Source of the DNA: Ruminococcus albus 7 = DSM 20455
GTDB lineage: Bacteria > Bacillota > Clostridia > Oscillospirales > Ruminococcaceae
Direction of reading: 5' to 3'
Length of the DNA stretch: 32,000 nucleotides
NCBI RefSeq assembly: GCF_000179635.2
Contig: NC_014833.1
Coordinates: 2,670,001 to 2,702,000, forward strand
Positions 3,577 to 31,481 of this stretch are shown piece after piece; the first letter of the stretch is position 1, and every line of letters starts with the position of its first letter. The position numbers were made by a program, and so were the translations under genes. The notes under the pieces were generated by a model. The model was given only the letters and a program-made list of their open reading frames with translations, did no database searches and was not told where the DNA came from.

Positions 3577-3592
3577 TTTTATCTATCCTTTC

Positions 3593-12167: not shown

Positions 12168-12341
12168 ATAATACTCTCCTCGTTGTTTTGATAACAAAAC
12201 TTACTATTTAATAATATCACTATTTTTTGCTTTTGTCAATCAGCTCCGGCCACCATACTCCCACTTTTCTCAGAAAATGGAAAAACCATGCTGTAAAATC
12301 CCATGATATCCGATATTTAGTAAATTTTTTTCGTCACCCCC

Positions 12342-17524: not shown

Positions 17525-17544
17525 GTAGATCAAAAGAGGTTTTG

Positions 17545-18108
17545 ATGACTATAAAAACAGTTAGTAAAAAGAAAAAAATTATAATAATACTTGCAGCTAT
17601 TGTTCTGGTTGTAAGCATTGCTAAATTTATTTTATATTACACTTCAACAGAGCAGAAAATGATCAGGAGTTACAATAACAACAACGAATTGTATGTAAAA
17701 CTCATTGATGACTTAAGCGATTATCATAATAGTCTTGATGATGATGTTTCCAGAATTGAAATAGGCTGGGATCCTGAAAAAGAACAGTCAGATACCATAA
17801 TGCGTAAAGATCTTGTGCATAAGGTCCCAATAGATGAAAACATATACAATGACTTGAAACTTGCATTAGATACTATCGATAACTCGGAAAAAATGTATTT
17901 CAAAGTTTTTTTTGATCAGGATCGGGTCATAAGAATGGAGATACATATTACTGATTCCAGTTATAGAAATGGAGAAGATATAGTGATCAATACTGATGAA
18001 TTGGTATATTCTGTTTTGCCTGTTGAAAACCTGAACAAAGATATTGCTAAATCAAAACCAATTGATGAAAATTGGTATTTTGTCAAAGAAGAATATAGTG
18101 CAGGTTAA
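17545..18108 (+). CDS. Hypothetical membrane-anchored protein
   Basis: The ORF is 17542..18108. The ATG at 17545 lies 5 nt after AGAGG. It has an N-terminal Lys-rich stretch and a TM anchor (KKKKIIIILAAIVLVVSIAKF). The rest is acidic, Asn/Asp-rich and matched no family I recognise. The gene is very AT-rich and has its own promoter and terminator. Confidence 0.55.
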   Translation: MTIKTVSKKKKIIIILAAIVLVVSIAKFILYYTSTEQKMIRSYNNNNELYVKLIDDLSDYHNSLDDDVSRIEIGWDPEKEQSDTIMRKDLVHKVPIDENIYNDLKLALDTIDNSEKMYFKVFFDQDRVIRMEIHITDSSYRNGEDIVINTDELVYSVLPVENLNKDIAKSKPIDENWYFVKEEYSAG

Positions 18109-18248: not shown

Positions 18249-19319
18249 TTAGATATTCTGATTGATGTATCTGTTGAGGTCGTTTGCGTTTACGCACTTT
18301 TCGAGAGCGACCTCCTTGGAGATAGTTCTGTTTCTGACCAGCTTAGCAAGCTCCTGATCCATAGTCTGCATTCCGACAGCCTTACCTGTCTGCATAGCAG
18401 AACCGATGAGGTGAACCTTATCGTCACGGATCATAGCCTTGATGGAGTCGGTAGCGTTCAGGATCTCACAGCAAGCTACACGGCTTGTACCGTCAAATGT
18501 ACGGCAAAGAGTCTGAGTACAGATACCAACAAGTACAGACGCCAGCTGAGTTCTGATCTGGTGCTGCTGGTGTGCAGGGAATACGTCGATGATACGGTCG
18601 ATGGTGGAAGCCGCATCAGTGGTATGAAGTGTGGACATAACCAGGTGACCTGTTTCTGCGGCGGTTACGGCAGCTTCGATAGTCTCGAAGTCACGCATTT
18701 CTCCGACGAGTATGATATCAGGGTCCTCACGGAGGGCAGCTCTCAGCGCCATGGAGAAGCTGGGAACATCGGGTCCGATCTCTCTCTGGTTGATCATACA
18801 TCTCTTGTGGGAGTGCAGATACTCGATAGGATCCTCAACAGTGATGATATGTGAAGACTTATGGATATTAACGTGGTCGATCATAGCTGCCAGTGTGGTA
18901 GACTTACCTGAACCGGTAGGACCTGTTACAAGTACAAGACCACGGGGACGCATAACGAATTCAGCCAGTACGGGAGGCAGATCCAGATCGGTAAGAGTAG
19001 GTATATCGTTTCTCAGCAAACGGATAGCGATAGCCGTATTGCCTCTCTGATGGTAAACGTTAACTCTGTGACGGAAGCCTCTGCTGGATACATAGGTAAA
19101 GTCGGTATCGATCTTATCCTTGATCTGCTGTCTCTGTCTGTCGTTACACATATCCTCACATACTCTGAGTATTTCGATCTCAGTCATATCAGGATAGCTG
19201 GACAGTTTTCTCAGGTTACCGCCCTGTCTTACGATAGGGGGGATACCAACTGTAAAATGCAAGTCCGAGCAGCCCAGCGCTCTGGATTCGTCCAGTATCT
19301 TGTTAATATCAATTGCCAT
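18249..19319 (-). CDS. pilT: Type IV pilus retraction ATPase PilT
   Basis: The ORF is 18249..19409. The preferred ATG is at 19319, after GGAGGT, giving MAIDINKILDESRALGCSDLHF, a typical PilT start. It has Walker A GPTGSGKST, GEMRD, and the His box LVMSTLHT. There is no N-terminal T2SSE_N domain and no tetracysteine motif. Confidence 0.9.
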   Translation of the reverse strand: MAIDINKILDESRALGCSDLHFTVGIPPIVRQGGNLRKLSSYPDMTEIEILRVCEDMCNDRQRQQIKDKIDTDFTYVSSRGFRHRVNVYHQRGNTAIAIRLLRNDIPTLTDLDLPPVLAEFVMRPRGLVLVTGPTGSGKSTTLAAMIDHVNIHKSSHIITVEDPIEYLHSHKRCMINQREIGPDVPSFSMALRAALREDPDIILVGEMRDFETIEAAVTAAETGHLVMSTLHTTDAASTIDRIIDVFPAHQQHQIRTQLASVLVGICTQTLCRTFDGTSRVACCEILNATDSIKAMIRDDKVHLIGSAMQTGKAVGMQTMDQELAKLVRNRTISKEVALEKCVNANDLNRYINQNI

Positions 19320-19424
19320 TTGTTTATACCTCCAAACAATATATTTATAGCTGGCTGTTAAACGTCTGATTTTTTGGATAGTATGCTGACGCGACACCCC
19401 AACAGCCACCTAAGCTCAACTAAT

Positions 19425-21101
19425 TTATACAGCGTAGGTAACACGTACCAGCTCGTCCATAGTAGTTCTTCCCTGCTGAACAAGCTCAGAAACGTTGTCA
19501 CGCAGCAGACGGCAGCCTTCTTCCTTGGCGAGTTCCTGTATCTGCTCACTCTTGGCACCTGCAGCGATGATCTCTTTCATCTTCGGGGTAGCCAGAAGTA
19601 TCTCATGGATAGCTGTACGTCCAACGTAACCTCTTGTACACTTTACACAGCCAACAGGCTTGTATACGGGTACAGACTCGGTAATGCCCATAAGCTCATT
19701 ATCCTCTTCTGAGGACATATAGCTTTCACGGCAGTTAGGACAAACGACCTTAGCAAGTCGCTGCGCAACAACGCCGATAAGCGATGTAGCAACCATGTAT
19801 GCATCAACGCCCATATCCACAAGTCTTGTAACAGTGGAAGCAGCATCGTTGGTATGAAGTGTGGACAGCACAAGGTGTCCCGTGATAGCGGCTCTGATAC
19901 CGATCTCAGCTGTCTCGGTATCACGCATCTCACCGATCATTATGATATCAGGATCCTGACGAAGGATAGAACGCAGAGCTGCCGCAAAGGTCATGCCTGC
20001 CTTTTCATTTATCTGACACTGATTGATGTTTGCTATCTTCTTCTCGACAGGGTCTTCGACGGTGATAACATTGAGGTTCGGCTTAGCGATCTCACCAAGC
20101 GCCGCATAAAGTGTGGTAGACTTACCTGAACCGGTAGGTCCTGTAACCAGTACCACGCCCTGAGGAACCTTCAGACAGGAAACGAATCTCTTATAGTTAT
20201 AGTCTGTCATACCCAGATCCTGAATACGTCTTACAGAGCTGTCACCGGCGAGGATACGGAGAACGACTTTCTCACCATATACCATAGGAAGATTGGATAC
20301 ACGGAGGTCAACGGTAGTACCGTCGATGACCTGTGACATACGTCCGTCCTGAGGTATACGCTTCTCAGCTATGTTCATACCTGAAAGGATCTTGAATCTT
20401 GTTACAAGCGATACATGGATCCTTGCATCAAGGTCATCCATAAGGGGAACCAGGTCACTGTTGATACGGACTCTGATCTTGGTATTATTCTTGAAGGGCT
20501 CGATATGTATATCGGTTGCGCCCTGACGGTAAGCCTGTTCAACTATGGCAGTTGCCAGCTTAACGATAGGAGCGTTATCAACGGTATCAGAACTGAGGTC
20601 GATATCATTGAGATCAATGGTCTCCTCTTCCTTCTGCTGCTTAGCTTCCTCAGCCACCTTTGCTGCAGTACCCTCAGAGTACATCTTACCGATCGCTCTG
20701 TTGATAGCGCCCTTGGTAGCCAGCTGAGGTGTGATGTTACAGCCTGTGACCATTCTCAGATCTTCAAATATGTACAGGTTCATAGGATCGCTTGTTGCGA
20801 CCATAAGACGTCTGCCTATCTTCCTTACAGCTATAACGCCTGATGCCCTGGACTTGGCTTCGGGTATGAGCCTTACAACATCAGCGTTCAGCACAGTGTT
20901 GTCAAGGTCGATGAACTCAATGTTCATTCTCTCCGCCAGAGTTTTAGCAAAATCAACATCGCTGACAAGCTTCATCTCAACGACGAGATCACCGAACTTC
21001 TTGTCCTTTTCCGTTTTTTGCCTTTCAAGGACAGCGTTAAGCTCCTCTTCGGTCAGCAAGTTCTTTTCAAGCAAATATTGTCCGATTGGTCCGTTTCTCA
21101 T
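19425..21101 (-). CDS. pilB: Type IV pilus assembly ATPase PilB (GspE family)
   Basis: 558 aa. It has Walker A GPTGSGKST, GEMRD, LVLSTLHTNDA, and the tetracysteine motif CPNC...CVKC. The N-terminal T2SSE_N-like region carries two MshEN-like 24-residue motifs. RBS AGGAG lies 7 nt before the ATG. Confidence 0.92.
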   Translation of the reverse strand: MRNGPIGQYLLEKNLLTEEELNAVLERQKTEKDKKFGDLVVEMKLVSDVDFAKTLAERMNIEFIDLDNTVLNADVVRLIPEAKSRASGVIAVRKIGRRLMVATSDPMNLYIFEDLRMVTGCNITPQLATKGAINRAIGKMYSEGTAAKVAEEAKQQKEEETIDLNDIDLSSDTVDNAPIVKLATAIVEQAYRQGATDIHIEPFKNNTKIRVRINSDLVPLMDDLDARIHVSLVTRFKILSGMNIAEKRIPQDGRMSQVIDGTTVDLRVSNLPMVYGEKVVLRILAGDSSVRRIQDLGMTDYNYKRFVSCLKVPQGVVLVTGPTGSGKSTTLYAALGEIAKPNLNVITVEDPVEKKIANINQCQINEKAGMTFAAALRSILRQDPDIIMIGEMRDTETAEIGIRAAITGHLVLSTLHTNDAASTVTRLVDMGVDAYMVATSLIGVVAQRLAKVVCPNCRESYMSSEEDNELMGITESVPVYKPVGCVKCTRGYVGRTAIHEILLATPKMKEIIAAGAKSEQIQELAKEEGCRLLRDNVSELVQQGRTTMDELVRVTYAV

Positions 21102-21173
21102 AGATACGCTCCTAACCTCCGCCCTCAGCGGATAAATAAAATTTTGAATAAATTCTTAAATTCTTAATACCTC

Positions 21174-21202
21174 TTGTAATTCATGTAGAATTGTGTTAAA
21201 AT
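21174..21202 (+). promoter_or_regulatory. Sigma-A type promoter for pilD
   Basis: TTGTAA (21174..21179), a 17-nt spacer ttcatgtagaattgtgt (TGTGt -16 motif), then TAAAAT (21197..21202). Confidence 0.6.
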
Positions 21203-21230
21203 ATATATATGAAATGCGAATGCATATCAA
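21202..21230 (-). promoter_or_regulatory. Candidate divergent promoter for pilB-pilT
   Basis: The minus strand reads TTGATA (21230..21225), a 17-nt spacer, then TATATA (21207..21202). Its -10 abuts the pilD -10. This is weaker evidence because there is no -16 motif. Confidence 0.35.
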
Positions 21231-21256
21231 TTCTTTAAGAAAGGAGGAGATCAAAG

Positions 21257-22090
21257 GTGAATACCGAAACACTGTATCTTATAATAGTATACGCGTTTGT
21301 TTTTATCTTCGGAATATGTATAGGCAGCTTCCTTAACGTATGCATTTACCGTCTGCCGCTGGGTGAAAGCCTTATCAAAAGCAATTCCCACTGCATGACC
21401 TGCGGCACACCTATTAGAAAACGTGATCTTATACCGGTTGTCAGCTGGTGTCTGCTGAGAGGTAAATGTCACGCCTGCGGTGCCAGGATCTCTCCGAGAT
21501 ACACCGTAGTCGAGCTGCTGAACGGCATCTGCTACCTAATTATCTTCCTGCATTTTGATGTGGTATCTCATCCGCTGTACGCTTCCATCGTCGCGCTGAT
21601 GACCTCTGCGCTGATAGTAGTATTCTTCATGGACTGGGATACACAGCTTATAAATACATGGGTGGTAATATTCATAGGTGCGCTGTCAATACCTAAGTAC
21701 ATATTCTGCCGCCAGGAATGCAACTACACACTCACCAAGATGATTGTTGGTGCACTGGTGATAAGCATACCGCTGCTTGTGATCTCACTTGCGAGCCATG
21801 AAAAAGCTATGGGCATGGGTGATGTTTACCTTATGGCAGCCGCAGGACTCTTCCTGGGAACACCGAATGTAGTCATCGCTATGCTGATAGCCCTTATAAC
21901 AGGTTCCGTATGCGGCCTGATAATCAAGCACTCAAACGGAAGCTCCGTATTTGCTTTCGGACCCTATCTTGCAATAGGAATCGCGGTCGCTGCACTTTAC
22001 GGTGATCAGATAGCTGATTTCTACGTAAAGTTCACGGGGCTTGATGAAACACTATCGGAAGCCGCAATGGTCATCGCGAAGGTGCTCTGA
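21257..22090 (+). CDS. pilD: Prepilin peptidase / N-methyltransferase PilD
   Basis: 277 aa. GTG start lies 7 nt after GGAGGAG. It has an N-terminal CxxC...CxxC motif (HCMTCG...CHACG) and catalytic Asp contexts FFMDWDTQ and GMGDVYLMAAAG, within a multi-TM protein. Confidence 0.9.
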   Translation: MNTETLYLIIVYAFVFIFGICIGSFLNVCIYRLPLGESLIKSNSHCMTCGTPIRKRDLIPVVSWCLLRGKCHACGARISPRYTVVELLNGICYLIIFLHFDVVSHPLYASIVALMTSALIVVFFMDWDTQLINTWVVIFIGALSIPKYIFCRQECNYTLTKMIVGALVISIPLLVISLASHEKAMGMGDVYLMAAAGLFLGTPNVVIAMLIALITGSVCGLIIKHSNGSSVFAFGPYLAIGIAVAALYGDQIADFYVKFTGLDETLSEAAMVIAKVL

Positions 22091-22103
22091 TAATCAAAAA
22101 TAT

Positions 22104-22131
22104 CCGCTGAGTTATTCAGCGGTATTTTTTT
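22104..22131 (+). terminator. Rho-independent terminator of pilD
   Basis: CCGCTGA (22104..22110), loop gttat, TCAGCGG (22116..22122), then TATTTTTTT. Confidence 0.8.
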
Positions 22132-22168
22132 GCCCTTTTTTAGGAGCCTGTCACATTTGCTCAAAAGG

Positions 22169-22224
22169 TCTCCGCAGAAACACTGCGGAGATCTTTTCAG
22201 CAAGCGGCTGAATTCAGCCGCTTG
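22169..22224 (-). terminator. Two further hairpins closing the minus-strand pilin operon
   Basis: CAAGCGGCTG-aatt-CAGCCGCTTG (22201..22224) lies 15 nt after the 667-aa gene stop. TCTCCGCAG-n5-CTGCGGAGA (22169..22191) follows, with CCTTTTG after it on the minus strand and TCTTTTC on the plus strand. Confidence 0.55.
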
Positions 22225-22239
22225 TGAATTTGTTTTGGT

Positions 22240-24243
22240 TTAATTTACTCTCAATGAATTTCCATCATAAACGCACGCACAATTATCGTTAACAGTAACG
22301 GAAGAATTATTGAAAGAAACACTTACTGATGCATTATCATAAATGTACAGTTTCAAAACCTGACCAGGTGAAAATACGTTAACAATCTGCTTATAATTTT
22401 CAGCGGTTTCAGAAACGATCTCTGTAGTACCATCCTCTTCGCACAGTACGAAATGAGCAGGAGATCCCTGAATTGCTAATGAATTGTACCAAGGATTGAT
22501 ATCCTCGATGGTAATAGTTACTTCATAAGTACCTTCATAAGCGCATTCTTTGTAAATAGGTTTGATGGTGAATCCACCTTTCGAATATTTTTCAAAAATA
22601 TTCGGATCCGAACCAAAGACACCAAGATCTTTATCAGCAGCATCAAATACATGAAGATTCTCAAATACCTGACCAGCAGGTGCATTGTCCTTTGCTTCCT
22701 GAATTAATTGTTGGAATCTACTATCATTCTTATAATCATCACTGGTATAACCATCAACTATTGTAATACTTGTAGTACTACTAAAACCTGCAACATTAAA
22801 TGCAACAATGTCTTTCTGTTCATAGATAGCGTAGTATGTGTCAACAGAAGTATACTTTGCTCCTGATACGAACCAGCCTGCTTTTATATCTGCAGCAACT
22901 GCTTTAGGATCAGGATCTCCCGATGGAGCACCTGTAGCATCCGGCTTAGTATTCCAACCTATAAACTTATACGCACCTACTTTAGGATCATCACCATTTC
23001 CACGGTGAAAATCTACTGTACCGGTAAATCCATCAGCTTCAGAATAGAAGTCCGCCGTATCTTCCCAGTATGGTGGGGTTTGACCTGTATGATCTATATG
23101 ATGATCATCAAATCTATCTCTGAAAAGAAATTGGCCTGTCGGCTTATTTAAAACCTCAGAAGTATAATTACAATAGAAAACCAGTTTGTTAGATATGGGT
23201 GCTGATCTGTAATAATCGATAGGCTCGTTATTCTCTGAACTTATACCATTAAAATGTAGGAATGTATTAGTAGCGTAGTCCATTTTCTGATTTTTTTTAC
23301 CAATATCCATCCAACTATTATATATACTATCAGAGATAGAAGAACCGGAAGAAATAGTTTGCGTATCTAAAAGAGCCTTAGTCTCACTATTTTTTAATAG
23401 TATTTGTACTTTTTCACTCGACGGTTTTTCCCTTGTGTAAAGGATATAGGTATATGTTCCAGTTTCATCGAGATGATTTGAACCTAAGGAACCAACATTA
23501 GATGACTGGACAAGATTATTATAATCTATAGGGTTAAGAGCATTATCACGACTGCTATAGAAATATCCCTTCATATTTTTTTGTGATGCTTCATCCAGAT
23601 TGATGTTAACAAGCTCAAAATCACGACTCTGGTTGTAGACTACCTTTTTAAATTCATAACTAAGACCTTCACGACTGGGACGCATGAGCTCGATATCAAG
23701 GGTCAGGCACTTGCTCTTACCATTATCAAGAGTTTTCATAGAAGCATCAAACTTACAGCCGTAATCATTGTAAAGATCTTCTGAACGAAGGATGCCCATC
23801 TTGTCTATATCGATACCGGCATCATTAATCCTAGCTCTCAGTATACAACCCTTAGCGCCCTTTCTGTGAGCAACAGTACCCTGCGCATCATATCCAGCTA
23901 ACTGAGAACCTCTGATAGCATTATTATCGATTATAAGAACATCTGTCAGCTTTGCAGTAACAAACGGCTTACTTGTTGAATCAACAAGAAATCCATCGAT
24001 TAACTGGGGAACGCCCTTATAATCCTGAAGTACAACAACATTGGTCGCATATCTCAGTTCGTCATCCACGTTATCCATAAGAATAGAACCGATATCATTA
24101 GTATCGTCCATTGCTTGTGTTCTCTCATAGAACTTATTCACAGGTCTGATAAAATTAAGTATAGCACCCATTACCATTACCATAATCGTCGCAACGATAA
24201 TAAGTTCAATGAGGGTAAAACCTTTTTTATTCACTTTCTTCAT
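22240..24243 (-). CDS. Large modular type IV pilin (prepilin leader, pilin-sized module, ~450-aa C-terminal extension)
   Basis: 667 aa. RBS GGGGGTG. The class III signal is MKKVNKKG/FTLIELIIVATIMVMV (G-1, F+1, E+5). A Cys pair C163-x15-C179 resembles a pilin D-region. The long C-terminal part is beta-rich, for example YKFIGWNTKPDATG...DTYYAIYEQK. Confidence 0.8.
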   Translation of the reverse strand: MKKVNKKGFTLIELIIVATIMVMVMGAILNFIRPVNKFYERTQAMDDTNDIGSILMDNVDDELRYATNVVVLQDYKGVPQLIDGFLVDSTSKPFVTAKLTDVLIIDNNAIRGSQLAGYDAQGTVAHRKGAKGCILRARINDAGIDIDKMGILRSEDLYNDYGCKFDASMKTLDNGKSKCLTLDIELMRPSREGLSYEFKKVVYNQSRDFELVNINLDEASQKNMKGYFYSSRDNALNPIDYNNLVQSSNVGSLGSNHLDETGTYTYILYTREKPSSEKVQILLKNSETKALLDTQTISSGSSISDSIYNSWMDIGKKNQKMDYATNTFLHFNGISSENNEPIDYYRSAPISNKLVFYCNYTSEVLNKPTGQFLFRDRFDDHHIDHTGQTPPYWEDTADFYSEADGFTGTVDFHRGNGDDPKVGAYKFIGWNTKPDATGAPSGDPDPKAVAADIKAGWFVSGAKYTSVDTYYAIYEQKDIVAFNVAGFSSTTSITIVDGYTSDDYKNDSRFQQLIQEAKDNAPAGQVFENLHVFDAADKDLGVFGSDPNIFEKYSKGGFTIKPIYKECAYEGTYEVTITIEDINPWYNSLAIQGSPAHFVLCEEDGTTEIVSETAENYKQIVNVFSPGQVLKLYIYDNASVSVSFNNSSVTVNDNCACVYDGNSLRVN

Positions 24244-24255
24244 ATCAGCACCCCC

Positions 24256-25017
24256 TTATTCTTCTGCAACTTCAGCAGGATCACTATCGAATTGCTCAGG
24301 GGTTTTGAAACCGGATCCATCAAAGTAGATATAGCGCATATTGTCTTTTGTATTAGGCAATCCCATCGAATCAAGATCGATATTTACACCCTCTTGAGGA
24401 AGGCCATCACCTGTGATTTTCAGACAACCATTCATACTAGCACCGGAATTATGTCGCTTGACACCAAATTTCATATAACCACCATTAGGTGCCCAGAGAT
24501 GCGATGGGGTCGATTGCTGTCCGTTATCAACATGTGCATTATTAAAGAATGTGAAATCTGTAGAATTAAGTTCAGCTGTCCATTCATGCTGTACTGTATC
24601 ATAGTTATACAGCGTTACCCAGTATTCATTTTCTTCAAGGCTTAACTGTTCAGCAGATGAAAAGAATGAAAGATCAAATACACCGTCAGGGTCAGTATTA
24701 TCGAGCTTTGCATTATAGCCGAAAACATGATCATTAACAACAGTTGCAGACGTAAATGGAAAAGATATTCTCCACTGGTTAGTACCATTTGTCATGGGAC
24801 GAACATTTGAATACTCAGGATCAAGAACGCTTGCATAAGACGAGAAATGCTCAAGATTGGTCGACTGAGAATTTGTCTTTGTCATTCTGCTTGCGGACTT
24901 TGCCTGCGAACGCATAGAAGCGCTCGCAGCCATAACAAATCCCGTAGTAGCAACTGCAAATACACCCATTGCAATAATGCATTCGACAAGTGTCATACCT
25001 TTTTTATTAGTTTTCAT
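24256..25017 (-). CDS. Type IV pilin-like protein (minor-pilin/PilV-like)
   Basis: 253 aa. RBS GGGAGG. The leader is MKTNKKG/MTLVECIIAMGVFAVATTGFVM (G-1, E+5). Confidence 0.75.
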   Translation of the reverse strand: MKTNKKGMTLVECIIAMGVFAVATTGFVMAASASMRSQAKSASRMTKTNSQSTNLEHFSSYASVLDPEYSNVRPMTNGTNQWRISFPFTSATVVNDHVFGYNAKLDNTDPDGVFDLSFFSSAEQLSLEENEYWVTLYNYDTVQHEWTAELNSTDFTFFNNAHVDNGQQSTPSHLWAPNGGYMKFGVKRHNSGASMNGCLKITGDGLPQEGVNIDLDSMGLPNTKDNMRYIYFDGSGFKTPEQFDSDPAEVAEE

Positions 25018-25038
25018 AATTATGACCTCCCTCCTGCA

Positions 25039-27471
25039 TTAATGATTATCATAGTAATCGAGCATAAAGCTCTTTTCTGCCTTTTCTTCTCCGGAACCCT
25101 TTACGTAAGCAAGCATCGACTTTGATGAAAGCTGGTTGTAAACAATGGCATTATTATTACCGGTTTTTGTATTGTAATGTTTACAAACGATATTGCCGAT
25201 AATATTAAGACACTGCATACGAGAAGTTGAATTATTAATTGCTACCTTACACTGACCGCCCTGATTTGTATTGGTATAAGTTGCTCTCGGCATATACATA
25301 CTAGCTTGTATAAGTGTCGTTGCCTGATCTACTATAAGTTCGCTTCCTTCAGTAAACAGAAAGATGATGTTGTTTGGAGCCATATCAAAGCCATTATTAA
25401 TTTGATTCTTTGTAGTATTAGCGGCCTTATCACCACTTGTTGCTCCGTTACGGCCCATGCAGTCAACATTACAGAATGTATCAAAATCCATAACAAGATT
25501 TTTTGAACCACCAAATGTAAATTTGGGATTCTTATTGAATGAAGAATGATCGTAGGTAGATATCGTATTTTTATCATGACCACTCATAGCATAATCATCT
25601 TTTGTATCACCAAAACCTGAATCACTTACAAAGTAGCAGAACTTAGCATCATCAGATTCAGGGTTTGTTGAGTTCTTAACAAGGATAACATTTTCGTTAA
25701 CTGTTTTACCTCCGTCCTTGAGGATAACCACCAGGTTCTTTTTCCCTGCAGGCAGCTGATCAAGGTCGATAAGTATATTAGTATTTTCAAGGTAATCAAT
25801 ATAGCAATCATCGGTAACTATATGATCAGGCTTGAATGAGCCCGTACCGGTATTACTGGTATAAACAGTGCCATCAGTTCCAAAACTAGTTGCATTTTTT
25901 ACATTATCAATATCTAAAGTTTTGCGGTCTGCTTTATACATATCCCTATACTGATTATAGATAGTTGAAACAGTTTCACTATAACCTGGTTCACAAAGCA
26001 GGTGCTCAGGGAAGTAATAGTAAGGAGGATTAGTATTATCATTTATCGTAGGAAATTCCGGTCTCTGAGCTCTGATTTCACCGGTCCAATCATCATCATA
26101 AGTTACAGAGATACCGCAAACAGTTGCCGGCTGTGTACCAGTTCCGCTACGAGTGGGCTTACCTGATGCATCCACAAATCTGTCCTGGTTTTCAAAAATA
26201 TAATTACCTTTCTGCATGTGGATTTTTTTACAATTAATATTACCAGTCGAATGCGTTATATACAGATCACCGCCAACATACAGCTCACCATTAATATCCA
26301 TAGTAGTATTTACTACAACATCACCGTTAAACGAATCGGTGCCATTAGTAAGATCTTTAAAAGTATACACATTTCCATACACCTTAAAACCGGCACCATT
26401 ACCACTGCCGAATTGATAAGCCTTTTTATTGAAATCAGGATCAGTATTGGAACCCTTTATAGCATTCATCATTCCTGTCTGCATATCGTCTGCTTTACCG
26501 ATATACAGCAGGTTCGTATAAATATCTACCTGATGAGTATCATCCTTACCGAAACATCCACCATTATTAGCAGTATATACCAGTGCTTCACCTACGTTAA
26601 CGTAGTTGTAATTATATGGTGAAACTCGGGCATCATTATTATCACTTGCAGTTTTTTCAAAATCAGGTGAAAATTCGGGTTCATTATTGGATATAATTAA
26701 TGATCTCGTAACATTAAGGACACAGCCCTTACTATCGTCTTCGCCCTGACAGTAATAGGGATTACTCTTAAAATAGTTATGATTCTGTATAACCAATGAA
26801 CCATTGATATCAACATCACCATAAAGTTCATTTTGATTATTGTCAAATTTGTACAGTGTATTATTGTCGTGCGAATCTTTATCTGTTGCACCTGTAGAAC
26901 CATATACTACGATATTTTCAAAATAACCTTTTGATGGATTACCACCATCAGTACCGATTATCTCAAGTGCCTTAGGAGTATACTGGCTCTTACGCATTGT
27001 CTGTGCTGAGAGATATGCTACAGCTGTCTTTTCCTGGCCAAGGTAGGTCGCTGTAGATATCACTTTTACAGAATTATCATTGATCCTTTCCACCTTGAGT
27101 TGACACTTGGCATTGCTCCATCTGGGTTCAACTTTACTAATTGGAGTAGGACTGCCTTTATCCATTTTATCAATCTCAACGTTGACAAATCGATTTTCAT
27201 CTGCAATATGTCTTATCAGATCGAGCTTTGCCTGGATCTCGGCACTAGTGTAGGTTGAATCTGTATAGCCTGTCGTTTCTGCAACAAAAGCACGCAGACA
27301 TGATGATGCAACATAGTACGCTTGTTTTTTTCGGTACTCAATGTTTGTTCTCACGTTGGTATGATTTACCAACGAGGTGGCAGCTGCAATAATGACCATC
27401 ATCATAACCGATACAACAGTTACGGTCATCAGCACAGCGCCCTTGCGTTGTGACGTGAATTTGGTTTTCAT
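25039..27471 (-). CDS. Giant PilX/GspK-like pilus protein (PilX_N-type hydrophobic N-terminus, no Glu+5)
   Basis: The ORF is 25039..27480 from a GTG. The preferred ATG is at 27471, 6 nt after AAGGTGG. The N-terminus MKTKFTSQRKGAVLMTVTVVSVMMMVIIAAATSL resembles PilX_N (QRGxxL...). The remaining ~770 aa is Asn/Gly/Thr-rich, with motifs such as LYGDVDINGSLVI and FNGDVVVNTTMDINGELYVGGDLYI. Confidence 0.65.
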   Translation of the reverse strand: MKTKFTSQRKGAVLMTVTVVSVMMMVIIAAATSLVNHTNVRTNIEYRKKQAYYVASSCLRAFVAETTGYTDSTYTSAEIQAKLDLIRHIADENRFVNVEIDKMDKGSPTPISKVEPRWSNAKCQLKVERINDNSVKVISTATYLGQEKTAVAYLSAQTMRKSQYTPKALEIIGTDGGNPSKGYFENIVVYGSTGATDKDSHDNNTLYKFDNNQNELYGDVDINGSLVIQNHNYFKSNPYYCQGEDDSKGCVLNVTRSLIISNNEPEFSPDFEKTASDNNDARVSPYNYNYVNVGEALVYTANNGGCFGKDDTHQVDIYTNLLYIGKADDMQTGMMNAIKGSNTDPDFNKKAYQFGSGNGAGFKVYGNVYTFKDLTNGTDSFNGDVVVNTTMDINGELYVGGDLYITHSTGNINCKKIHMQKGNYIFENQDRFVDASGKPTRSGTGTQPATVCGISVTYDDDWTGEIRAQRPEFPTINDNTNPPYYYFPEHLLCEPGYSETVSTIYNQYRDMYKADRKTLDIDNVKNATSFGTDGTVYTSNTGTGSFKPDHIVTDDCYIDYLENTNILIDLDQLPAGKKNLVVILKDGGKTVNENVILVKNSTNPESDDAKFCYFVSDSGFGDTKDDYAMSGHDKNTISTYDHSSFNKNPKFTFGGSKNLVMDFDTFCNVDCMGRNGATSGDKAANTTKNQINNGFDMAPNNIIFLFTEGSELIVDQATTLIQASMYMPRATYTNTNQGGQCKVAINNSTSRMQCLNIIGNIVCKHYNTKTGNNNAIVYNQLSSKSMLAYVKGSGEEKAEKSFMLDYYDNH

Positions 27472-27556
27472 AATTACCACCTTTCATTCTTTTGGTTTCC
27501 CGACTTTGTGTGTAATGATCAAAATAAAAATTTTAATCATTTTTTATAGCACGATT

Positions 27557-27583
27557 TGGCAGGCGGAATATTCCGCCCACCAA
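27557..27583 (-). other. Strong intercistronic stem-loop between pilO and the PilX-like gene
   Basis: The minus strand reads TGGTGGGCGGAA-ta-TTCCGCCTGCCA: a ~12 bp stem with one 2-nt internal mismatch. No U-tract follows (AAATCGTGC). Confidence 0.5.
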
Positions 27584-27595
27584 ACGCTATAAACA

Positions 27596-28393
27596 TTACT
27601 TATCATTATAATCCGGCAGCTTTTCTACTACCATCATTATAAGGGTCATGTTGCCCTCAACATCGGTATCGGATACCTTTGGCTTTGTTGACTTATCACC
27701 GGTCTTCTCATTAACAACATCTTCGGTTACGGTCTTACCGTCCTTATCGGTCTCAGCAGAGAACATAAAGTCAACGTTCTTAACGATCATTGTCTTCATA
27801 GACTTCGCTTTAGTTGAATTCTGAAGATCATTACAGAACTTCTCAACATCATCTATCTTGCCCTTGTAAGAGAATGAAACCTCATAGCTGCCTATTATAG
27901 CAGGAGCTGCAACAGCTTCACCCTTTGCGCCTGCCTCTGCATCAGCAGTATCAGGTGTTATAGGCTCAGACTGATTTATATAATCCTGTACCGTTGTATC
28001 AATCTCAGTTACTGCTTTAGTGCTTACATACTCATAAGGCTGGATAGTATAAGGAGTATAAGCTGAAACTGACATATCAAGGTTTTCGATCTTAGCCGTT
28101 TCAAGCAGGTTATCGACCTCCTGAGAAGCGTGCTGATTTGCCTGCACAGAATAGAAGCTTTCAGTCATTTTATTAACCTCTAAATAAGCATCTTGAATCC
28201 TTTTTTTGAGGTCCTTATCAGCCTTATTTCTCTCCTTCAGATCGGCAAGTGTAGCCTTTGCATCATCAAGTGCAGCCTGTGAATCCTGAAGACTTTCTAT
28301 TTTGGGTTTTATAAACAGCATTACACCTGCAACCCAAACAAGAACTACGATAACTATTGTAAGTACGATCCTATCGCGGTAATTAAGCTTCAT
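27596..28393 (-). CDS. pilO: PilO-like pilus alignment/platform protein
   Basis: The ORF is 27596..28399 from a GTG that overlaps the pilMN stop (GTGA). An ATG at 28393 lies 2 nt after that stop, behind GAGGGTGA. The layout is a short N-terminus, a TM helix (IVLTIVIVVLVWVAGVMLFI), a coiled coil, then a globular domain. The call rests on architecture and gene order. Confidence 0.65.
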   Translation of the reverse strand: MKLNYRDRIVLTIVIVVLVWVAGVMLFIKPKIESLQDSQAALDDAKATLADLKERNKADKDLKKRIQDAYLEVNKMTESFYSVQANQHASQEVDNLLETAKIENLDMSVSAYTPYTIQPYEYVSTKAVTEIDTTVQDYINQSEPITPDTADAEAGAKGEAVAAPAIIGSYEVSFSYKGKIDDVEKFCNDLQNSTKAKSMKTMIVKNVDFMFSAETDKDGKTVTEDVVNEKTGDKSTKPKVSDTDVEGNMTLIMMVVEKLPDYNDK

Positions 28394-28395
28394 CG

Positions 28396-29889
28396 TCACT
28401 CACCCTCTTTCTCTAAAATAACAGTAATATCATTAATAACAACAGGATTGTCTTTTTTGCCTGTTCCCGTATAGCCGCTATATACGACCTCTGCAACAAA
28501 ATCAAGTTTCTTAAGATCATCAACGAACTTTTTGGGCACATCCTGTGCTTTTTCCTGCTCTTCTACAGTTAACTGAGAAATAACTATCGAACCATTGTCA
28601 AGGTCATAAGTCATACCACCGTATGTGATCTTATCCTTTTCGATCACTTCCTGTATCTTATCGACCTTTTCTTTCTTCATTACAGGGAGAGTGTCGATAT
28701 CCAGCTGAACTGTTTGAACAAAGTTCTTATACTTGTTTATAAGTTCCAGTCTGTTATGAAGTATCTGGTTAGCAGCCTTGGTCTTTTCTTCTTCCTTTAT
28801 CTCAGCATCGATCCCAGCTTTTTCATTATCAACATTCTTTACCTGAACAGCGATGAAACCGGTGATCGCTGCGATAAGTATAGCAGAAGCAGCAGACAGG
28901 ATACCTGCTGTAGTCAGCATCGAGCTCAGACCTGCAGAAGAATCCTTATTATTGGAGTGATCAACTTCAAGGAGATTGATCCTTTCTGTCTGCTTGTTTC
29001 TTCTGTACAGAGCACCGATAGCGTTTGCAAATACGGTGAACTCGAAGTTCTCATAGCCTGTTATCTGAGAAGGTGTTCCCAGAACGGAAGCTCTGATATC
29101 CAAACCATCCAGTGCATCAACGATCTTCTTGTAATCCTCGATAAAGCCGTAAAGGATAACGTTTGACAGACCGTTACCGCCTCTTGCCTTGTTGAACTGC
29201 TCCATTCTGAATATATTCTCGTTCAGAGCTTCCAGAACGTAGTCATCAGCATCGTACTCATCGGGTGAGATCGGTACGTATCTTGCGAATGCCATCTGTC
29301 CGTTTTCAAACAGTGTCAGACCCAGGAAGTTATTATCCAGCTGGCACACCAGCAGAGGCATCTTATCAGCATTGGACTTATCGCTCAGAACGATTCTTGA
29401 AATAGAATTGCAGCTGATATTTACTGATCTGAGGTTTATGTTCATTACAGCGAAGAGCTTTTTGAAGCCTTCAACTATGGAGCTGGGGCAGGCAGTAGCC
29501 AGTACCTTCAGTGAGCCTGGATTCTGCTCACCTGCTTCACCTACTACTGTATATGAAATGGAATACTCATTGGAGATACCCATTTCCTGACTCATATGAT
29601 TCTGTACCATCTGCAGGAATTCACTGCCCTTAGCCTTAGGTACGATAAGTTCCTTAAATACAATACTGCTGGACGAGAATGTTACAACTGCGTCCCTGTC
29701 CATCATCTGCTCTGATCTCAGCGTTGTGAGCAGCAGCTCTGACAGACCTGAAAGCTGGATAACTTCACCGTTAACGATCATGTCACCGGGTACCTGAACA
29801 GTTGCCGAATTATCGATTCGGATCCTGCTTGCTGTGTTATCACCTTTTACGATATTGATCTGCCTATCAGAAAAATCGAATGATAGCAT
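28396..29889 (-). CDS. PilM-PilN fusion protein
   Basis: 497 aa. RBS GAGGTGAAGGA. The N-terminal ~310 aa is actin-like and PilM-like (MLSFDFSDRQINIVKG...). A TM helix follows (LTTAGILSAASAILIAAITGFIAV), then a coiled-coil plus globular PilN-like C-terminus. Confidence 0.78.
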   Translation of the reverse strand: MLSFDFSDRQINIVKGDNTASRIRIDNSATVQVPGDMIVNGEVIQLSGLSELLLTTLRSEQMMDRDAVVTFSSSSIVFKELIVPKAKGSEFLQMVQNHMSQEMGISNEYSISYTVVGEAGEQNPGSLKVLATACPSSIVEGFKKLFAVMNINLRSVNISCNSISRIVLSDKSNADKMPLLVCQLDNNFLGLTLFENGQMAFARYVPISPDEYDADDYVLEALNENIFRMEQFNKARGGNGLSNVILYGFIEDYKKIVDALDGLDIRASVLGTPSQITGYENFEFTVFANAIGALYRRNKQTERINLLEVDHSNNKDSSAGLSSMLTTAGILSAASAILIAAITGFIAVQVKNVDNEKAGIDAEIKEEEKTKAANQILHNRLELINKYKNFVQTVQLDIDTLPVMKKEKVDKIQEVIEKDKITYGGMTYDLDNGSIVISQLTVEEQEKAQDVPKKFVDDLKKLDFVAEVVYSGYTGTGKKDNPVVINDITVILEKEGE

Positions 29890-29929
29890 TTATTCCTTCA
29901 CCTCAATATAAAAATTTTTATGATCTATA

Positions 29930-29977
29930 CGCCGTTTCATACTTACGGCGGTCATATACGAGAGGCTTAGAGCCTCT
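29930..29977 (-). other. Two small intercistronic hairpins between pilC and pilMN
   Basis: AGAGGC (29961..29966) pairs with GCCTCT (29972..29977), and CGCCGT (29930..29935) pairs with ACGGCG (29945..29950). Neither is followed by a U-tract on the minus strand. Confidence 0.4.
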
Positions 29978-29984
29978 GCGCATA

Positions 29985-31181
29985 TTATTCCTTTTCCATT
30001 TCTGCGATACCACCATAGAGCATTGGGAATACAGCAGCAAGCACAAGACCGATGCCGACACCGAGAACGATGATCATCAAAGGTTCCATCAGTCCTACCA
30101 GTCGAGTTACAGCGGAATCGGCTTCTTCTTCGTAGAAGTCCGCAGTCTTTTCAAGAATATCATCCAGCGCACCGGACTCTTCACCAACGTAGATGATCGA
30201 GCAGAACATACCTTCAAATATCTCTGTCTTTGAAAGAGCAGTAGATACAGGAGAACCCTGCTTTACTTCGTCTACGACCTGAACGAACATCTTATCGATG
30301 TAAGTATTGTTAAGTATCCTCGAAGATCTCTCAAGGCAGTCTACCATCGGTATACCGCTGGAGTAAAGAGAAGAAAGAGTTCTCGAGAAACGACCTTCTG
30401 CTATCTTTACCATAAGAGGTCCGATAAGCGGCATTTTCAACTTTGCCTGATCGAATTTCAGCCTTACCGATTCGACCTTCAGTGCATACACGATAACGCC
30501 GATCACTACAACAACACCTATCAGAAGAGCATACCACTTATTGATGACGAAGTCACTGAATCCGAACAGTGCTTTCTGGAGCACGTTCATCTTTTCTTCA
30601 GGCATCATACTCCTGAATATAGGCAGGATCTTTACGCTCATCAGTATAACAACCGCGATGACCAGTACAAGCAGTACGCAAGGATAGATCATTGCACCCT
30701 TGACCTTATTGTTCAGCTTGTTTGTGTTTGCATAATACTCCTGAAGCCTTTTCATGGTGATATCAAGCGAACCTGATATCTCGCCTGCGTCTACCATAGA
30801 TATGAAGAAATCAGGGAAACAGCCTCGCTTAGCATCCAGCGCACCCGAAAAGCTTTCGCCCTTCTGAACTTCCTCATAAACCTGTTTCCAGACTTCCTTT
30901 GCGCCCTTGTTTTCTTCCTCTTTATAAAGGATATCGAGCGCCTTGACAATCGTCAGTCCCGACGACATCATTGCCGACAGCTGTCGGCAGCAATACGCCA
31001 GTTCAGCCGTGTTGAATCTGTGAGCAGTTTTCCTTCCTCCGCCCAGAGCTTCACTATAGCTTACACAGAACAGACCCTGCTCATAGATCTTTTCAAGCAG
31101 TTCCTGCTCGCTGTCAGCCTCGTAGGTACCTTTAATGGTCTTACCCGTGGTATCCTTAGCGACGTAGCTATAATTTTTCAT
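29985..31181 (-). CDS. pilC: Type IV pilus platform protein PilC (GspF family)
   Basis: The ORF is 29985..31223. The preferred ATG is at 31181, after GGTGGAGGTG, giving MKNYSYVAKDTTGKTIKGTYEADSEQEL, a typical PilC start. It has two GspF repeats and three TM segments. Confidence 0.92.
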   Translation of the reverse strand: MKNYSYVAKDTTGKTIKGTYEADSEQELLEKIYEQGLFCVSYSEALGGGRKTAHRFNTAELAYCCRQLSAMMSSGLTIVKALDILYKEEENKGAKEVWKQVYEEVQKGESFSGALDAKRGCFPDFFISMVDAGEISGSLDITMKRLQEYYANTNKLNNKVKGAMIYPCVLLVLVIAVVILMSVKILPIFRSMMPEEKMNVLQKALFGFSDFVINKWYALLIGVVVVIGVIVYALKVESVRLKFDQAKLKMPLIGPLMVKIAEGRFSRTLSSLYSSGIPMVDCLERSSRILNNTYIDKMFVQVVDEVKQGSPVSTALSKTEIFEGMFCSIIYVGEESGALDDILEKTADFYEEEADSAVTRLVGLMEPLMIIVLGVGIGLVLAAVFPMLYGGIAEMEKE

Positions 31182-31288
31182 ATTGTAGATACACCTCCAC
31201 CATTTTAATGCTTCACAGCTCATGCCGTCTGACTCAGCAGTGCATTAAAAACACAACAAGGCATAAAACCACAAAACATATTTTTATC

Positions 31289-31317
31289 ATTATATCATTT
31301 TTTTGATTTTTTTACAA
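31289..31317 (-). promoter_or_regulatory. Sigma-A type promoter for the pilC operon
   Basis: The minus strand reads TTGTAA (31317..31312), a 17-nt spacer ending in TGa (extended -10), then TATAAT (31294..31289). A/T tracts lie upstream. Confidence 0.55.
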
Positions 31318-31481
31318 GTCAAAATACCGATTTTTTTGCAATTTTATTCACAAAATAATAATGATATTTTTAGTCAACTCTCACTAAAAAGATGCATTAT
31401 TTAACCTTTTAACAAATTCTCAAACTATGCAGAGAATTTTTTTGTACTCATTTGTTCCGATACATTACAGGGAGCATATCA

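Follow-up and report, generated by a model that had tools for sequence, protein, structure and literature searches.

A published type IV pilus locus of Ruminococcus albus 7 carries a strain-variable cassette of three large genes that most likely build the pilus tip

Known pilus systems related to the locus

In Ruminococcus flavefaciens 007C, type IV pilus genes are clustered in the order pulF(pilC)-pilM-...-orfX-pil1-pil2, with pilD on the opposite strand, and pilB-pilT (Vodovnik et al. 2013, PMC3672088, Table S6). The window, the whole 32-kb stretch of R. albus 7 DNA analyzed here, has the same gene order and orientation, and its proteins E6UE05-E6UE13 are listed as homologues in that table; positions 18249-31317 are a locus for type IV pilus assembly and retraction that had been published before. 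The equivalents of orfX, pil1, and pil2 are the R. albus genes for proteins of 810, 253, and 667 aa, respectively. Pil1 and Pil2 of R. flavefaciens are much smaller (about 164 and 358 aa), whereas OrfX is larger (about 944 aa). In addition, the R. flavefaciens major pilin genes pil3 and pil4 directly follow pilT; in R. albus, unrelated genes occupy that position and the pilins are encoded elsewhere. The pilA1-pilA2 locus of R. albus 8, 20, and 7 (CbpC/GP25; Pegden 1998; Rakotoarivonina 2002, 2005; Christopherson 2014; Yeoman 2021) belongs to the same pilus and provides the fiber subunit on which the machine must act in processing and assembly. It lies at a site of its own, by secD-secF, and encodes small products (169 and 155 aa in strain 8). 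What we add is modest: an 810-aa protein predicted to be ComZ-like, a predicted four-module 667-aa pilin, and the variability of the three-gene cassette.

Large pilin-like proteins have been described in other systems. ComZ-PilA2 of Thermus thermophilus (6QVI; Salleh et al. 2019) and the solenoid-bearing PilX of cyanobacteria combine a pilin-like helix and sheet with a large beta-solenoid, and have been argued to cap the fiber (PMC6561018; bioRxiv 10.64898/2026.02.12.705559). Like the R. albus 810-aa protein, they lack Glu5 or are not predicted to be PilD substrates, and their genes lie beside those of other minor pilins. By contrast, ComZ and the 810-aa protein have no detectable sequence similarity and low TM-scores, the latter exceeds the former by about 250-300 residues and has an extra C-terminal region, and R. 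albus, as a monoderm, has no secretin through which the pilus must pass. ComZ is known to bind DNA. In Streptococcus sanguinis, whose monoderm type IVa pilus has PilT, as here, the minor pilins PilB (vWA) and PilC (lectin) exceed 50 kDa, carry modules grafted after the pilin module, and are modelled as tip adhesins (Raynaud et al. 2021); their modules are recognizable domains, whereas the four modules of the 667-aa protein match no Pfam family.

Co-encoded minor pilins with a Glu5-less cap also characterize FimU-PilV-PilW-PilX(-PilY1) of Pseudomonas and GspH-I-J-K of type II secretion, and the R. albus trio is arranged likewise. Unlike those priming complexes, it consists of three genes only, and the locus encodes neither a FimU/GspH-like adaptor nor PilY1. 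Each of the three proteins is far larger than its priming-complex namesake, and two bear NCBI PilV/PilW family labels. PilV-PilU-PilK of Clostridioides difficile is a comparable core minor-pilin priming complex.

Genes of the assembly and retraction machine

All genes of the locus except pilD lie on the minus strand. PilB, PilT, PilD, PilC, a PilM-PilN fusion, and PilO, named in an earlier reading made from the sequence only, are encoded where that reading placed them, PilO as a PilO-like protein, and its guess of a cellulolytic Ruminococcus host was confirmed by exact protein matches to R. albus 7 (ADU22870 and ADU22872-ADU22875). The retraction ATPase gene pilT (18249-19319) encodes 356 aa (ADU22870 / E6UE05), not 386, when counted from the deposited start at Met31 of the longest ORF. 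PilT scored 447.5 bits against TIGR01420 in a profile search (cut-off 319.1), matches the R. albus 7 protein exactly, and has 100% identity with its R. albus SY3 counterpart. The extension ATPase gene pilB (19425-21101; 558 aa) specifies an N-terminal MshEN-type c-di-GMP-binding domain: PilB matched Pfam T2SSE (424 bits), MshEN (61 bits), and the NCBIfam c-di-GMP motif NF053729 (43.6 bits, cut-off 38), and fell under the equivalog cut-off of TIGR02538 (534.5 versus 675.65). On the plus strand, pilD (21257-22090) encodes a prepilin peptidase/N-methyltransferase of 277 aa (ADU22872 / E6UE07) that matched A24_N_bact (112.7 bits) and Peptidase_A24 (45.5 bits) and is likewise identical to the R. 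albus 7 protein.

The platform protein PilC (29985-31181) has two T2SSF domains (203 bits); its length of 398 aa, counted from Met15 of the ORF, is that of the form on record. Downstream of it, the 497-aa fusion gene pilM-pilN (28396-29889) matched PilM_2 over residues 5-203 (36.1 bits versus 27). A hydrophobic segment at about 325-352 and a C-terminal domain follow; this part, which has no family match, would be the PilN half. The next gene (27596-28393) encodes a bitopic membrane protein of 265 aa, which we call PilO-like mainly from its topology and its conserved place after pilMN, the match to T2SSM being weak (20.3 bits, cut-off 27.8). Curated family matches thus cover PilT, PilB, PilC, PilD, and PilM.

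The major pilin is encoded elsewhere in the genome

We searched for prepilin leaders by six-frame scans with strict and loose patterns. Across the entire 32 kb, only the 667-aa and 253-aa proteins were found, and the 10 kb upstream of pilC, taken from identical contigs, contained no others, indicating that the locus and its immediate surroundings lack a pilin gene of 120-200 aa. The local absence of an ordinary small pilin gene was therefore correctly noted from the sequence, and a canonical major pilin directly past the window was looked for in those 10 kb and not found.

The further suggestion of a system with no conventional major pilin did not hold, because R. albus pili consist of the small pilin GP25/CbpC (PilA1), as shown by immuno-EM (PMC6916266). 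In strain 7, pilA1/pilA2 are Rumal_0365/0366, adjoined by two protein-export membrane genes, Rumal_0367/0368 (PMC4300822 supplement). The pilin (YP_004103555) and PilD (YP_004105506) are 1,951 RefSeq numbers apart (PMC3672088 Table S6), and published work puts pilA1/pilA2 about 1,950 protein-coding genes from the window. We took the existence and position of the strain 7 genes from two papers and from the sister strain R. albus 8, in which PilA1-PilA2-SecD-SecF are encoded on contig ADKM02000091 and the machine on ADKM02000062. The latter is also the contig of one of the loci that we compared (L011).

Published in vivo RPKM values for R. albus 8 are 32,500-82,700 for PilA1 and about 1,250-2,400 for the three orthologous large genes, so that PilA1 mRNA is 15-40 times as abundant. 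With these values, the three genes are on a par with pilC, pilMN, and pilO, above the traces at which minor pilins are sometimes expected. The published pilus-gene list of this strain holds one type IVa pil locus and one other cluster, Tad-like judging by its gene products; since the list offers no type IVa pil locus other than the machine, PilA1 needs it. Of two explanations offered by the sequence-only reading, a filament subunit encoded elsewhere, with this operon giving a tip or priming set, was supported, whereas a giant polymerized subunit conflicts with the PilA1 fiber and the transcript ratios.

Three large pilin-like proteins

The 810-aa protein (25039-27471, longest ORF 813 aa; ADU22875 / E6UE10, "hypothetical protein") has the length estimated before. 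Prepilin-type N-termini had been claimed for all three proteins; this is true of the 667-aa and 253-aa proteins, whereas the 810-aa protein starts with a pilin-like helix that has Thr at +5 and no Glu5. It matched no Pfam family and no PDB sequence, and its family comprises 402 representatives at 50% clustering. In an AlphaFold2 model (pLDDT 83.7, pTM 0.74), a beta-solenoid is predicted, and the sole significant fold match in the PDB was ComZ (6QVI; probability 1.00, E 3e-6), with TM-scores of just 0.26/0.37 and an rmsd of 14 Å. The match supports a common architecture rather than close superposition, and by this prediction the protein resembles ComZ, a Thermus pilus-tip protein with a beta-solenoid. 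The GspK/PilX-like character proposed earlier agrees with the fold search.

The 667-aa protein (22240-24243; ADU22873 / E6UE08; N_methyl; "PilW family protein" at NCBI) has a canonical leader, MKKVNKKG followed by FTLIE, with Glu5. In its AlphaFold2 model (pLDDT 84), alpha1 (11-64) is followed by a large pilin sheet that extends to about residue 272, by three alpha/beta modules (278-364, 370-476, and 479-566), and by a beta-sandwich (572-667); the model hence predicts a pilin with four extra modules. Relatives were found in Ruminococcus only, and for its C-terminal region no homologue was detectable beyond the near relatives within its own family. The 253-aa protein (24256-25017; ADU22874 / E6UE09; N_methyl; NCBI "type IV pilus modification PilV family protein") has the leader MKTNKKG followed by MTLVE, and keeps its position in all related loci. 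That the three might be commonplace minor pilins, already annotated as part of a known cluster, was half borne out: two have PilW- and PilV-family names at NCBI, and E6UE08 is listed as a Pil2 homologue (PMC3672088 Table S6), but none of the three is characterized and their globular parts match no Pfam family.

A variable cassette in a conserved locus

The layout, which had been called unusual, was drawn for R. flavefaciens in 2013 and is conserved across the genus: it recurs in R. albus SY3 and R. albus 8, in R. bicirculans-like contigs, and in other contigs of Ruminococcus, with the three large genes keeping their place in each related locus. In a locus otherwise about 99% identical between strains, these genes form a hypervariable, sharply bounded cassette. 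Flanking genes are 98-100% identical in DNA to those of other strains (dS 0.01-0.04); for the cassette, the identity is 54-89%, with dS 0.38-0.58 and dN 0.13-0.28. Identity begins to drop at the upstream edge, a 124-bp minus-strand spacer with a hairpin (GGCGGAATATTCCGCC; 27472-27595), and leaps from 54% to 100% at about 22220.

Proposed mechanism and alternatives

It is very likely that this type IVa locus serves a PilA1 fiber encoded far off, and that its three distal genes supply a minor-pilin set for the tip. PilD would cleave and methylate prepilins, which PilB, with its c-di-GMP-binding MshEN domain, PilC, and a PilMN/PilO sub-complex would polymerize; PilT would retract the fiber. PilA1 (CbpC/GP25 family; Rumal_0365), encoded with pilA2 beside secD-secF at a distant site on the chromosome, is the fiber subunit. 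The products of the three distal genes would be low-abundance minor pilins that start assembly and remain at the tip. Because it lacks Glu5, the 810-aa protein could only be the terminal subunit, a putative ComZ/PilX-type cap with a bulky beta-solenoid, and the 253-aa (PilV-like) and 667-aa (PilW-like) proteins would dock under it via their N-terminal helices, the latter displaying its four extra modules at the tip. The trio would evolve as an exchangeable, strain-variable cassette because it is surface-exposed. The absence of an encoded FimU/GspH-like adaptor from the cassette counts against this tip set. We infer tip location, assembly order, and adhesive role; the three genes most likely build the pilus tip, and their products are plausibly good candidates for a cellulose-binding one.

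It is possible, if rather unlikely, that the trio only primes assembly, as core minor pilins do in other systems, while the PilA1 shaft binds cellulose and the extra modules play no part in adhesion. CbpC (PilA1) was originally isolated as a protein that binds cellulose (Pegden 1998), but reviews do not settle whether GP25 itself binds cellulose. Moreover, four functionless modules and a solenoid would be costly, and strong strain-level diversification points to contact with a ligand or antagonist; the adhesin-like fold matches are weak.

We consider it improbable that the trio is a DNA receptor, like ComZ-PilA2 of Thermus, in which the solenoid cap would bind extracellular DNA and PilT retraction would serve natural transformation rather than fiber adhesion. 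The 810-aa protein has a single structural relative, a DNA-binding competence pilin, PilT is present, and solenoid-bearing PilX caps occur on competence as well as motility pili of cyanobacteria. However, comEA, comEC, and dprA were not found in the window or its flanks, and to our knowledge natural competence has not been reported for R. albus, whose pili are tied by experiment to cellulose adhesion; nor could the DNA-binding lysines of ComZ be mapped onto the 810-aa protein, given undetectable sequence similarity.

Finally, a large protein is most improbable as the main subunit of an unusually thick filament apart from the PilA1 fiber: the 667-aa protein, the most plausible choice, combines a canonical leader with Glu5, the locus itself encodes no small pilin, and the three genes are transcribed about as much as the machine genes, but R. 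albus pili consist of GP25 by immuno-EM, PilA1 mRNA is far more abundant, PilA1 itself needs the one type IVa machine listed for R. albus 8, extra modules amounting to about 400 residues could not be packed along a helical fiber (the same has been argued for ComZ and S. sanguinis PilB), and strain-level sequence turnover is more typical of exposed accessory parts.

Intergenic regions

Promoter-like hexamers occur in the A+T-rich region upstream of pilC on the minus strand (31182-31481), where TTGTAA-17-TATAAT at 31317-31289 is a consensus match only. The 155-bp divergent spacer between pilB and pilD (21102-21256) has such matches on the plus strand alone (21164-21202), at a frequency near chance level; these matches did not confirm the overlapping divergent promoters suggested earlier. 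Between pilD and the 667-aa gene, the convergent terminator region (22091-22239), which forms the downstream edge of the variable cassette, does contain the three G+C-rich hairpins reported earlier: the segment 22091-22245 folds with -66.1 kcal/mol (z = -9.5 versus shuffles).

Gene content and machinery of the pil locus

The pil locus comprises nine genes in 18,249-31,317, all of which lie on the minus strand except pilD. In order of transcription, pilC (29985-31181) is followed by a pilM-pilN fusion (28396-29889, 497 aa), a pilO-like gene (27596-28393), and three large genes encoding pilin-like proteins of 810 aa (25039-27471; ADU22875, UniProt E6UE10), 253 aa (24256-25017; ADU22874, E6UE09), and 667 aa (22240-24243; ADU22873, E6UE08), which NCBI names 'hypothetical', 'type IV pilus modification PilV family protein', and 'PilW family protein', respectively. 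pilD (21257-22090, plus strand; ADU22872, E6UE07) is convergent with the 667-aa gene and divergent from pilB (19425-21101) and pilT (18249-19319; ADU22870, E6UE05). Exact sequence matching assigned the five accessions to R. albus 7 (ATCC 27210 / DSM 20455).

PilT, PilB, PilC, PilD, and the PilM part all matched curated family models. PilT scored 447.5 bits against TIGR01420 (cut-off 319.1), and PilB matched Pfam T2SSE over its full length (424 bits vs 24.9) as well as MshEN (61 bits), although its score against the narrower TIGR02538 equivalog, 534.5 bits, lay below the cut-off of 675.65. PilC matched Pfam T2SSF in two stretches (203 bits), PilD matched A24_N_bact (112.7 bits) and Peptidase_A24 (45.5 bits), and PilM_2 was found in the first 200 residues of the fusion protein (36.1 bits vs 27). 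The PilN part and PilO were assigned by membrane topology and gene order only, together with a T2SSM match of the PilO-like protein below threshold (20.3 bits vs 27.8). PilT, PilB, PilC, and PilD are those of type IVa pilus machinery of the monoderm type. The genes and the locus were thus as described in a sequence-only reading of this DNA, apart from minor changes to the start of pilT and to the length of the 810-aa protein, and its three terminator hairpins between pilD and the 667-aa gene were confirmed.

According to published work, the major pilin is encoded at another locus

A major pilin is expected to be about 120-200 aa long and by far the most abundant of the pilins; the proteins of 253, 667, and 810 aa all exceed this size. 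Strict and loose six-frame leader scans of the whole 32 kb detected prepilin leaders only on the 667-aa and 253-aa proteins, bearing out the earlier observation that no small pilin gene is present in the window. Nor did the scans detect a further prepilin leader in the 10 kb on the far side of pilC, a stretch that encodes a conserved membrane protein (201 aa), RecG, and a GH94 phosphorylase. The leaders of the 667-aa protein (MKKVNKKG/FTLIE) and the 253-aa protein (MKTNKKG/MTLVE) are class III signal peptides, and the N-terminus of the 810-aa protein (MKTKFTSQRKG/AVLMT), with Thr at +5, falls outside the prepilin pattern. That pattern consists of a short basic leader with Gly as its last residue, F or M at +1, Glu at +5, and roughly 20 hydrophobic residues.

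R. albus was the first monoderm (Gram-positive) bacterium shown to have type IV pili, and immuno-EM identified GP25, a small pilin whose leader is canonical, as the subunit of its fibers (PMC6916266). In R. albus 7, pilA1, which encodes this fiber subunit, and pilA2 are Rumal_0365/0366, and their organization matches that of the loci in strains 8 and 20 (PMC4300822 supplement). Vodovnik et al. listed E6UE05-E6UE13 as the R. albus 7 homologs of the R. flavefaciens pil cluster, and the R. albus 7 pilin homolog YP_004103555 is 1,951 RefSeq numbers away from PilD, YP_004105506 (PMC3672088). In R. albus 8, Yeoman et al. reported PilA1 (169 aa), PilA2 (155 aa), SecD, and SecF on contig ADKM02000091, separate from the pilus machine on contig ADKM02000062 (PMC8092306); the orthologous locus that we fetched independently lies on the latter contig.

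In vivo RNA-seq of R. albus 8 gave 32,500-82,700 RPKM for PilA1, about 1,250-2,400 RPKM for the three large genes, 500-840 RPKM for PilT, and 100-180 RPKM for PilD, so that mRNA levels of the large-gene orthologs were 15-40 times below that of PilA1 (PMC8092306). These proportions are as expected for one major pilin and a minor set. The locus is the pilus machinery locus already published for R. albus; the position of the major pilin is likewise in the literature, so that a 'missing major pilin' poses no puzzle. The headline of the sequence-only reading, a pilus machine with no conventional major pilin, does not hold, because the published R. albus 7 and 8 loci place a conventional one elsewhere. 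The first of its two alternatives proved correct: the subunit is encoded elsewhere, and the operon most likely supplies a tip or priming set.

The 810-aa protein is predicted to resemble the ComZ/PilX cap

To describe the 810-aa protein, we used an AlphaFold2 model built from 36 homologs (pLDDT 83.7, pTM 0.74). The model has a pilin-like N-terminal helix of about 60 residues (9-67) and a small sheet up to about residue 157, followed by short repeated strands at about 165-460 (about 300 residues) and a further mixed domain. Its last strand, at 801-807, is compatible with a solenoid inserted between the penultimate and final strands of the pilin sheet. In a Foldseek search, the sole significant PDB fold match was ComZ of Thermus thermophilus (6QVI; probability 1.00, E 3e-6, TM 0.26/0.37), with the next match at E 0.6. 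Because the TM-scores are low, we claim for the modeled protein and ComZ a common architecture, not a close relationship.

ComZ, a GspK-like pilin into which a beta-solenoid is inserted, was argued on steric grounds to cap the fiber (PMC6561018). Cyanobacterial PilX proteins also have the solenoid-in-pilin design, and a subunit that lacks Glu5, the glutamate at +5 of the mature pilin, is taken as the terminal one (bioRxiv 10.64898/2026.02.12.705559). Tip pilins of this type are further defined by binding of DNA and of a neighboring minor pilin. By prediction, the 810-aa protein combines the pilin helix, sheet, and large beta-solenoid of the ComZ/PilX-type design, and its Thr in place of Glu5 is as expected of a terminal subunit. 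A full HMMER scan recovered 402 representatives of its family, 51 of them at E ≤ 1e-30 and most of 700-950 aa; Pfam has no model for this family.

The 667-aa and 253-aa proteins

The 667-aa protein has a canonical leader with Glu5 and an N_methyl motif. In its AlphaFold2 model (62 sequences, pLDDT 84), alpha1 is a long helix and is followed by a large pilin sheet up to about residue 272, beyond which lie four modules, three of them alpha/beta and the terminal one a beta-sandwich. A search with the whole model gave weak, low-TM, multi-domain fold matches to ubiquitin-like/beta-grasp repeats and beta-sandwiches of Gram-positive adhesins. For the globular parts of the large proteins, searches of Pfam (E up to 10), NCBIfam, and PDB profiles matched the N-terminal helix only. 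With residues 275-667 as query, nine proteins were retrieved, all of the protein's own family, and no dockerin, CBM, or other surface protein was among them. As modeled, the protein would fit the architecture of the modular pilins of Raynaud et al. (2021), in which a pilin motif precedes extra modules, but the recognizable non-pilus domain that is grafted onto those pilins was not found in it.

The 253-aa protein is a plain minor pilin with Glu5. Priming complexes of the FimU-PilVWX/GspHIJK type, which form at the tip, comprise co-encoded minor pilins and one subunit without Glu5; co-encoding and a member without Glu5 are seen in the R. albus cassette of three large genes. Neither the FimU/GspH adaptor nor the PilY1 of these complexes is encoded in the R. 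albus 7 pil locus, as judged by Pfam and NCBIfam.

Layout of the locus in Ruminococcus

The gene order recG, small membrane protein, pilC, pilMN, pilO, ~800-aa gene, ~255-aa gene, ~650-aa gene, pilD (reversed), pilB, and pilT recurs in R. albus SY3, R. albus 8, two R. bicirculans-like loci (L009 and L010), a Ruminococcus metagenome genome from roe deer, and two more distant contigs (L029 and L030). None of these seven loci (L007, L009-L012, L029, and L030) contains a small prepilin within 10 kb, and a pilin after pilT is absent from four more distant Ruminococcus loci. The layout is thus a feature of the genus.

The R. flavefaciens cluster has the same gene order as the R. albus 7 window, but there pil3, encoding the major extracellular pilin, and pil4 directly follow pilT, unlike in R. 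albus (PMC3672088). In R. albus 7, the spot of those major pilin genes is occupied by 17542-18108 (plus strand), encoding a 188-aa membrane-anchored protein with no family match. At the same spot, R. albus SY3 encodes a 161-aa acidic protein and the R. bicirculans-like strains an EamA protein, both unrelated to the 188-aa protein; the post-pilT spot is therefore a variable junction. The SY3 gene was rejected as a pilin, having neither a leader nor a hydrophobic N-terminus.

At the other end of the locus, a gene at 31482-32000 (minus strand) that runs on past the window (L001 9095-9700) encodes the 201-aa multi-pass membrane protein, which has no Pfam match. Every related Ruminococcus locus has such a gene, for 182-220 aa, between recG and pilC, and the R. 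albus 8 counterpart is expressed at about 500-660 RPKM (PMC8092306).

The three large genes form a variable cassette

In five metagenome strains (L002-L006), the DNA of pilC, pilMN, pilD, and pilB is 98-100% identical to the window, whereas identity drops to 54-89% from about 27,500 to 22,220. This stretch corresponds to the three large genes; at the terminator hairpins, identity is back at 100% within a single bin of 300 nt. In the flanking genes, dS was 0.01-0.04, dN at most 0.01, and dN/dS 0-0.3; in the cassette, dS was 0.38-0.58, dN 0.13-0.28, and dN/dS 0.24-0.52. With dS 10-40 times higher than in the flanks, the cassette alleles are much older than their surroundings and have been swapped by recombination.

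Similarly, PilT is 100% and ParC 96.5% identical between R. albus 7 and SY3, against 41% for the 667-aa protein; PilO is intermediate, at 90%. Even in the R. bicirculans-like strains PilT is about 89-92% identical, in contrast to the neighboring minor pilins, and its 90%-identity cluster has 943 members from several Ruminococcus species. Across 61 aligned relatives of the 667-aa protein, conservation averages 83% in the N-terminal helix and is 22-31% in the modules. In some strains modules 4 and 5 are 95-98% identical while module 2 is below 50%, indicating that the protein is a mosaic at the module level. Such variation would fit surface-exposed parts that touch ligands or antagonists.

Strain-to-strain divergence starts at 27472-27595, in the 124-bp spacer that separates pilO from the 810-aa gene. 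Here a G+C-rich hairpin (GGCGGAATATTCCGCC) precedes an A+T-rich stretch, and the spacer may act as an attenuator or internal promoter or mark a recombination boundary.

PilB and cyclic di-GMP

Residues 1-150 of PilB form an MshEN-type c-di-GMP-binding N-terminal domain. As this domain passes the curated NCBI cut-off (NF053729, 43.6 bits vs 38), c-di-GMP probably switches on pilus extension via PilB. An Rfam search of the window gave no match, and hence no c-di-GMP riboswitch.

At 8 kb from the pil locus, 6476-9886 (minus strand) encodes a membrane sensor of 1,136 aa in which two solute-binding domains are combined with one PAS and one GGDEF (diguanylate cyclase) domain. It adjoins 4916-6469 (minus strand), whose product, a multi-pass membrane protein of 517 aa, has a related PAS region but lacks a GGDEF domain. 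The two proteins could be a source of c-di-GMP for PilB.

A possible route of assembly and a candidate tip adhesin

In the mechanism that we propose, PilD would process PilA1, PilA2, and the two local prepilins. By analogy, assembly on the PilC/PilMN/PilO platform would begin with the 810-aa protein, the 253-aa protein, and the 667-aa protein's pilin module. PilB, which c-di-GMP probably activates, would then insert PilA1 below the three, and PilT would retract the fiber. By the same analogy, the solenoid and the four modules would stay at the tip.

PilA2 was reportedly found by Rakotoarivonina in 2005 to be membrane-associated and outside the external fiber; that it serves as the missing adaptor is speculation on our part. 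In R. albus 8, prepilins are also encoded away from both pil loci, namely CUS_7109 (243 aa, 1,400-4,500 RPKM) and CUS_7046 (214 aa) (PMC8092306 Table S1), and either is a possible candidate for the adaptor pilin that the cassette lacks. The same strain has a second cluster, which looks Tad-like judging by the gene products: it includes genes for platform proteins and a prepilin peptidase, as well as a 106-aa gene with very high expression (PMC8092306 Table S1).

Pili are a recognized route of cellulose attachment for R. albus in the rumen, and pilus genes account for about 8-19% of in vivo transcripts in R. albus 8 (PMC8092306). We hypothesize that the cassette proteins have an adhesive role. 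Tentatively, and with more doubt than confidence, we propose that the cassette is a strain-specific, recombination-swapped tip adhesin, that it and not the PilA1 shaft sets which plant-wall polymer or other surface the pilus of each R. albus strain grips, and that its turnover is driven by substrate niche or by phages with the tip as their receptor. If true, this would tell which R. albus pilus component binds cellulose, and no ComZ/PilX-type solenoid cap would have been described in a monoderm before the 810-aa protein. The candidates for cellulose binding are the predicted solenoid-bearing cap and the pilin with four orphan modules. Both vary sharply between strains that are otherwise near-identical at the pil locus, and the pattern suggests that adhesion specificity may differ among R. 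albus strains. Of secondary interest are the ComZ-like cap in a monoderm, the orphan-module pilin, and the recombining cassette themselves.

Dockerin gene in the window

The window also encodes, at 10134-11636 (minus strand), a 500-aa secreted protein with a C-terminal type I dockerin and no other recognizable domain; dockerins are reported in the literature to be present in R. albus, and cohesins to be almost absent. Upstream of the dockerin gene, 11676-12197 (minus strand) encodes a SUKH/SMI1-KNR4 family protein, of a kind often found as immunity proteins.
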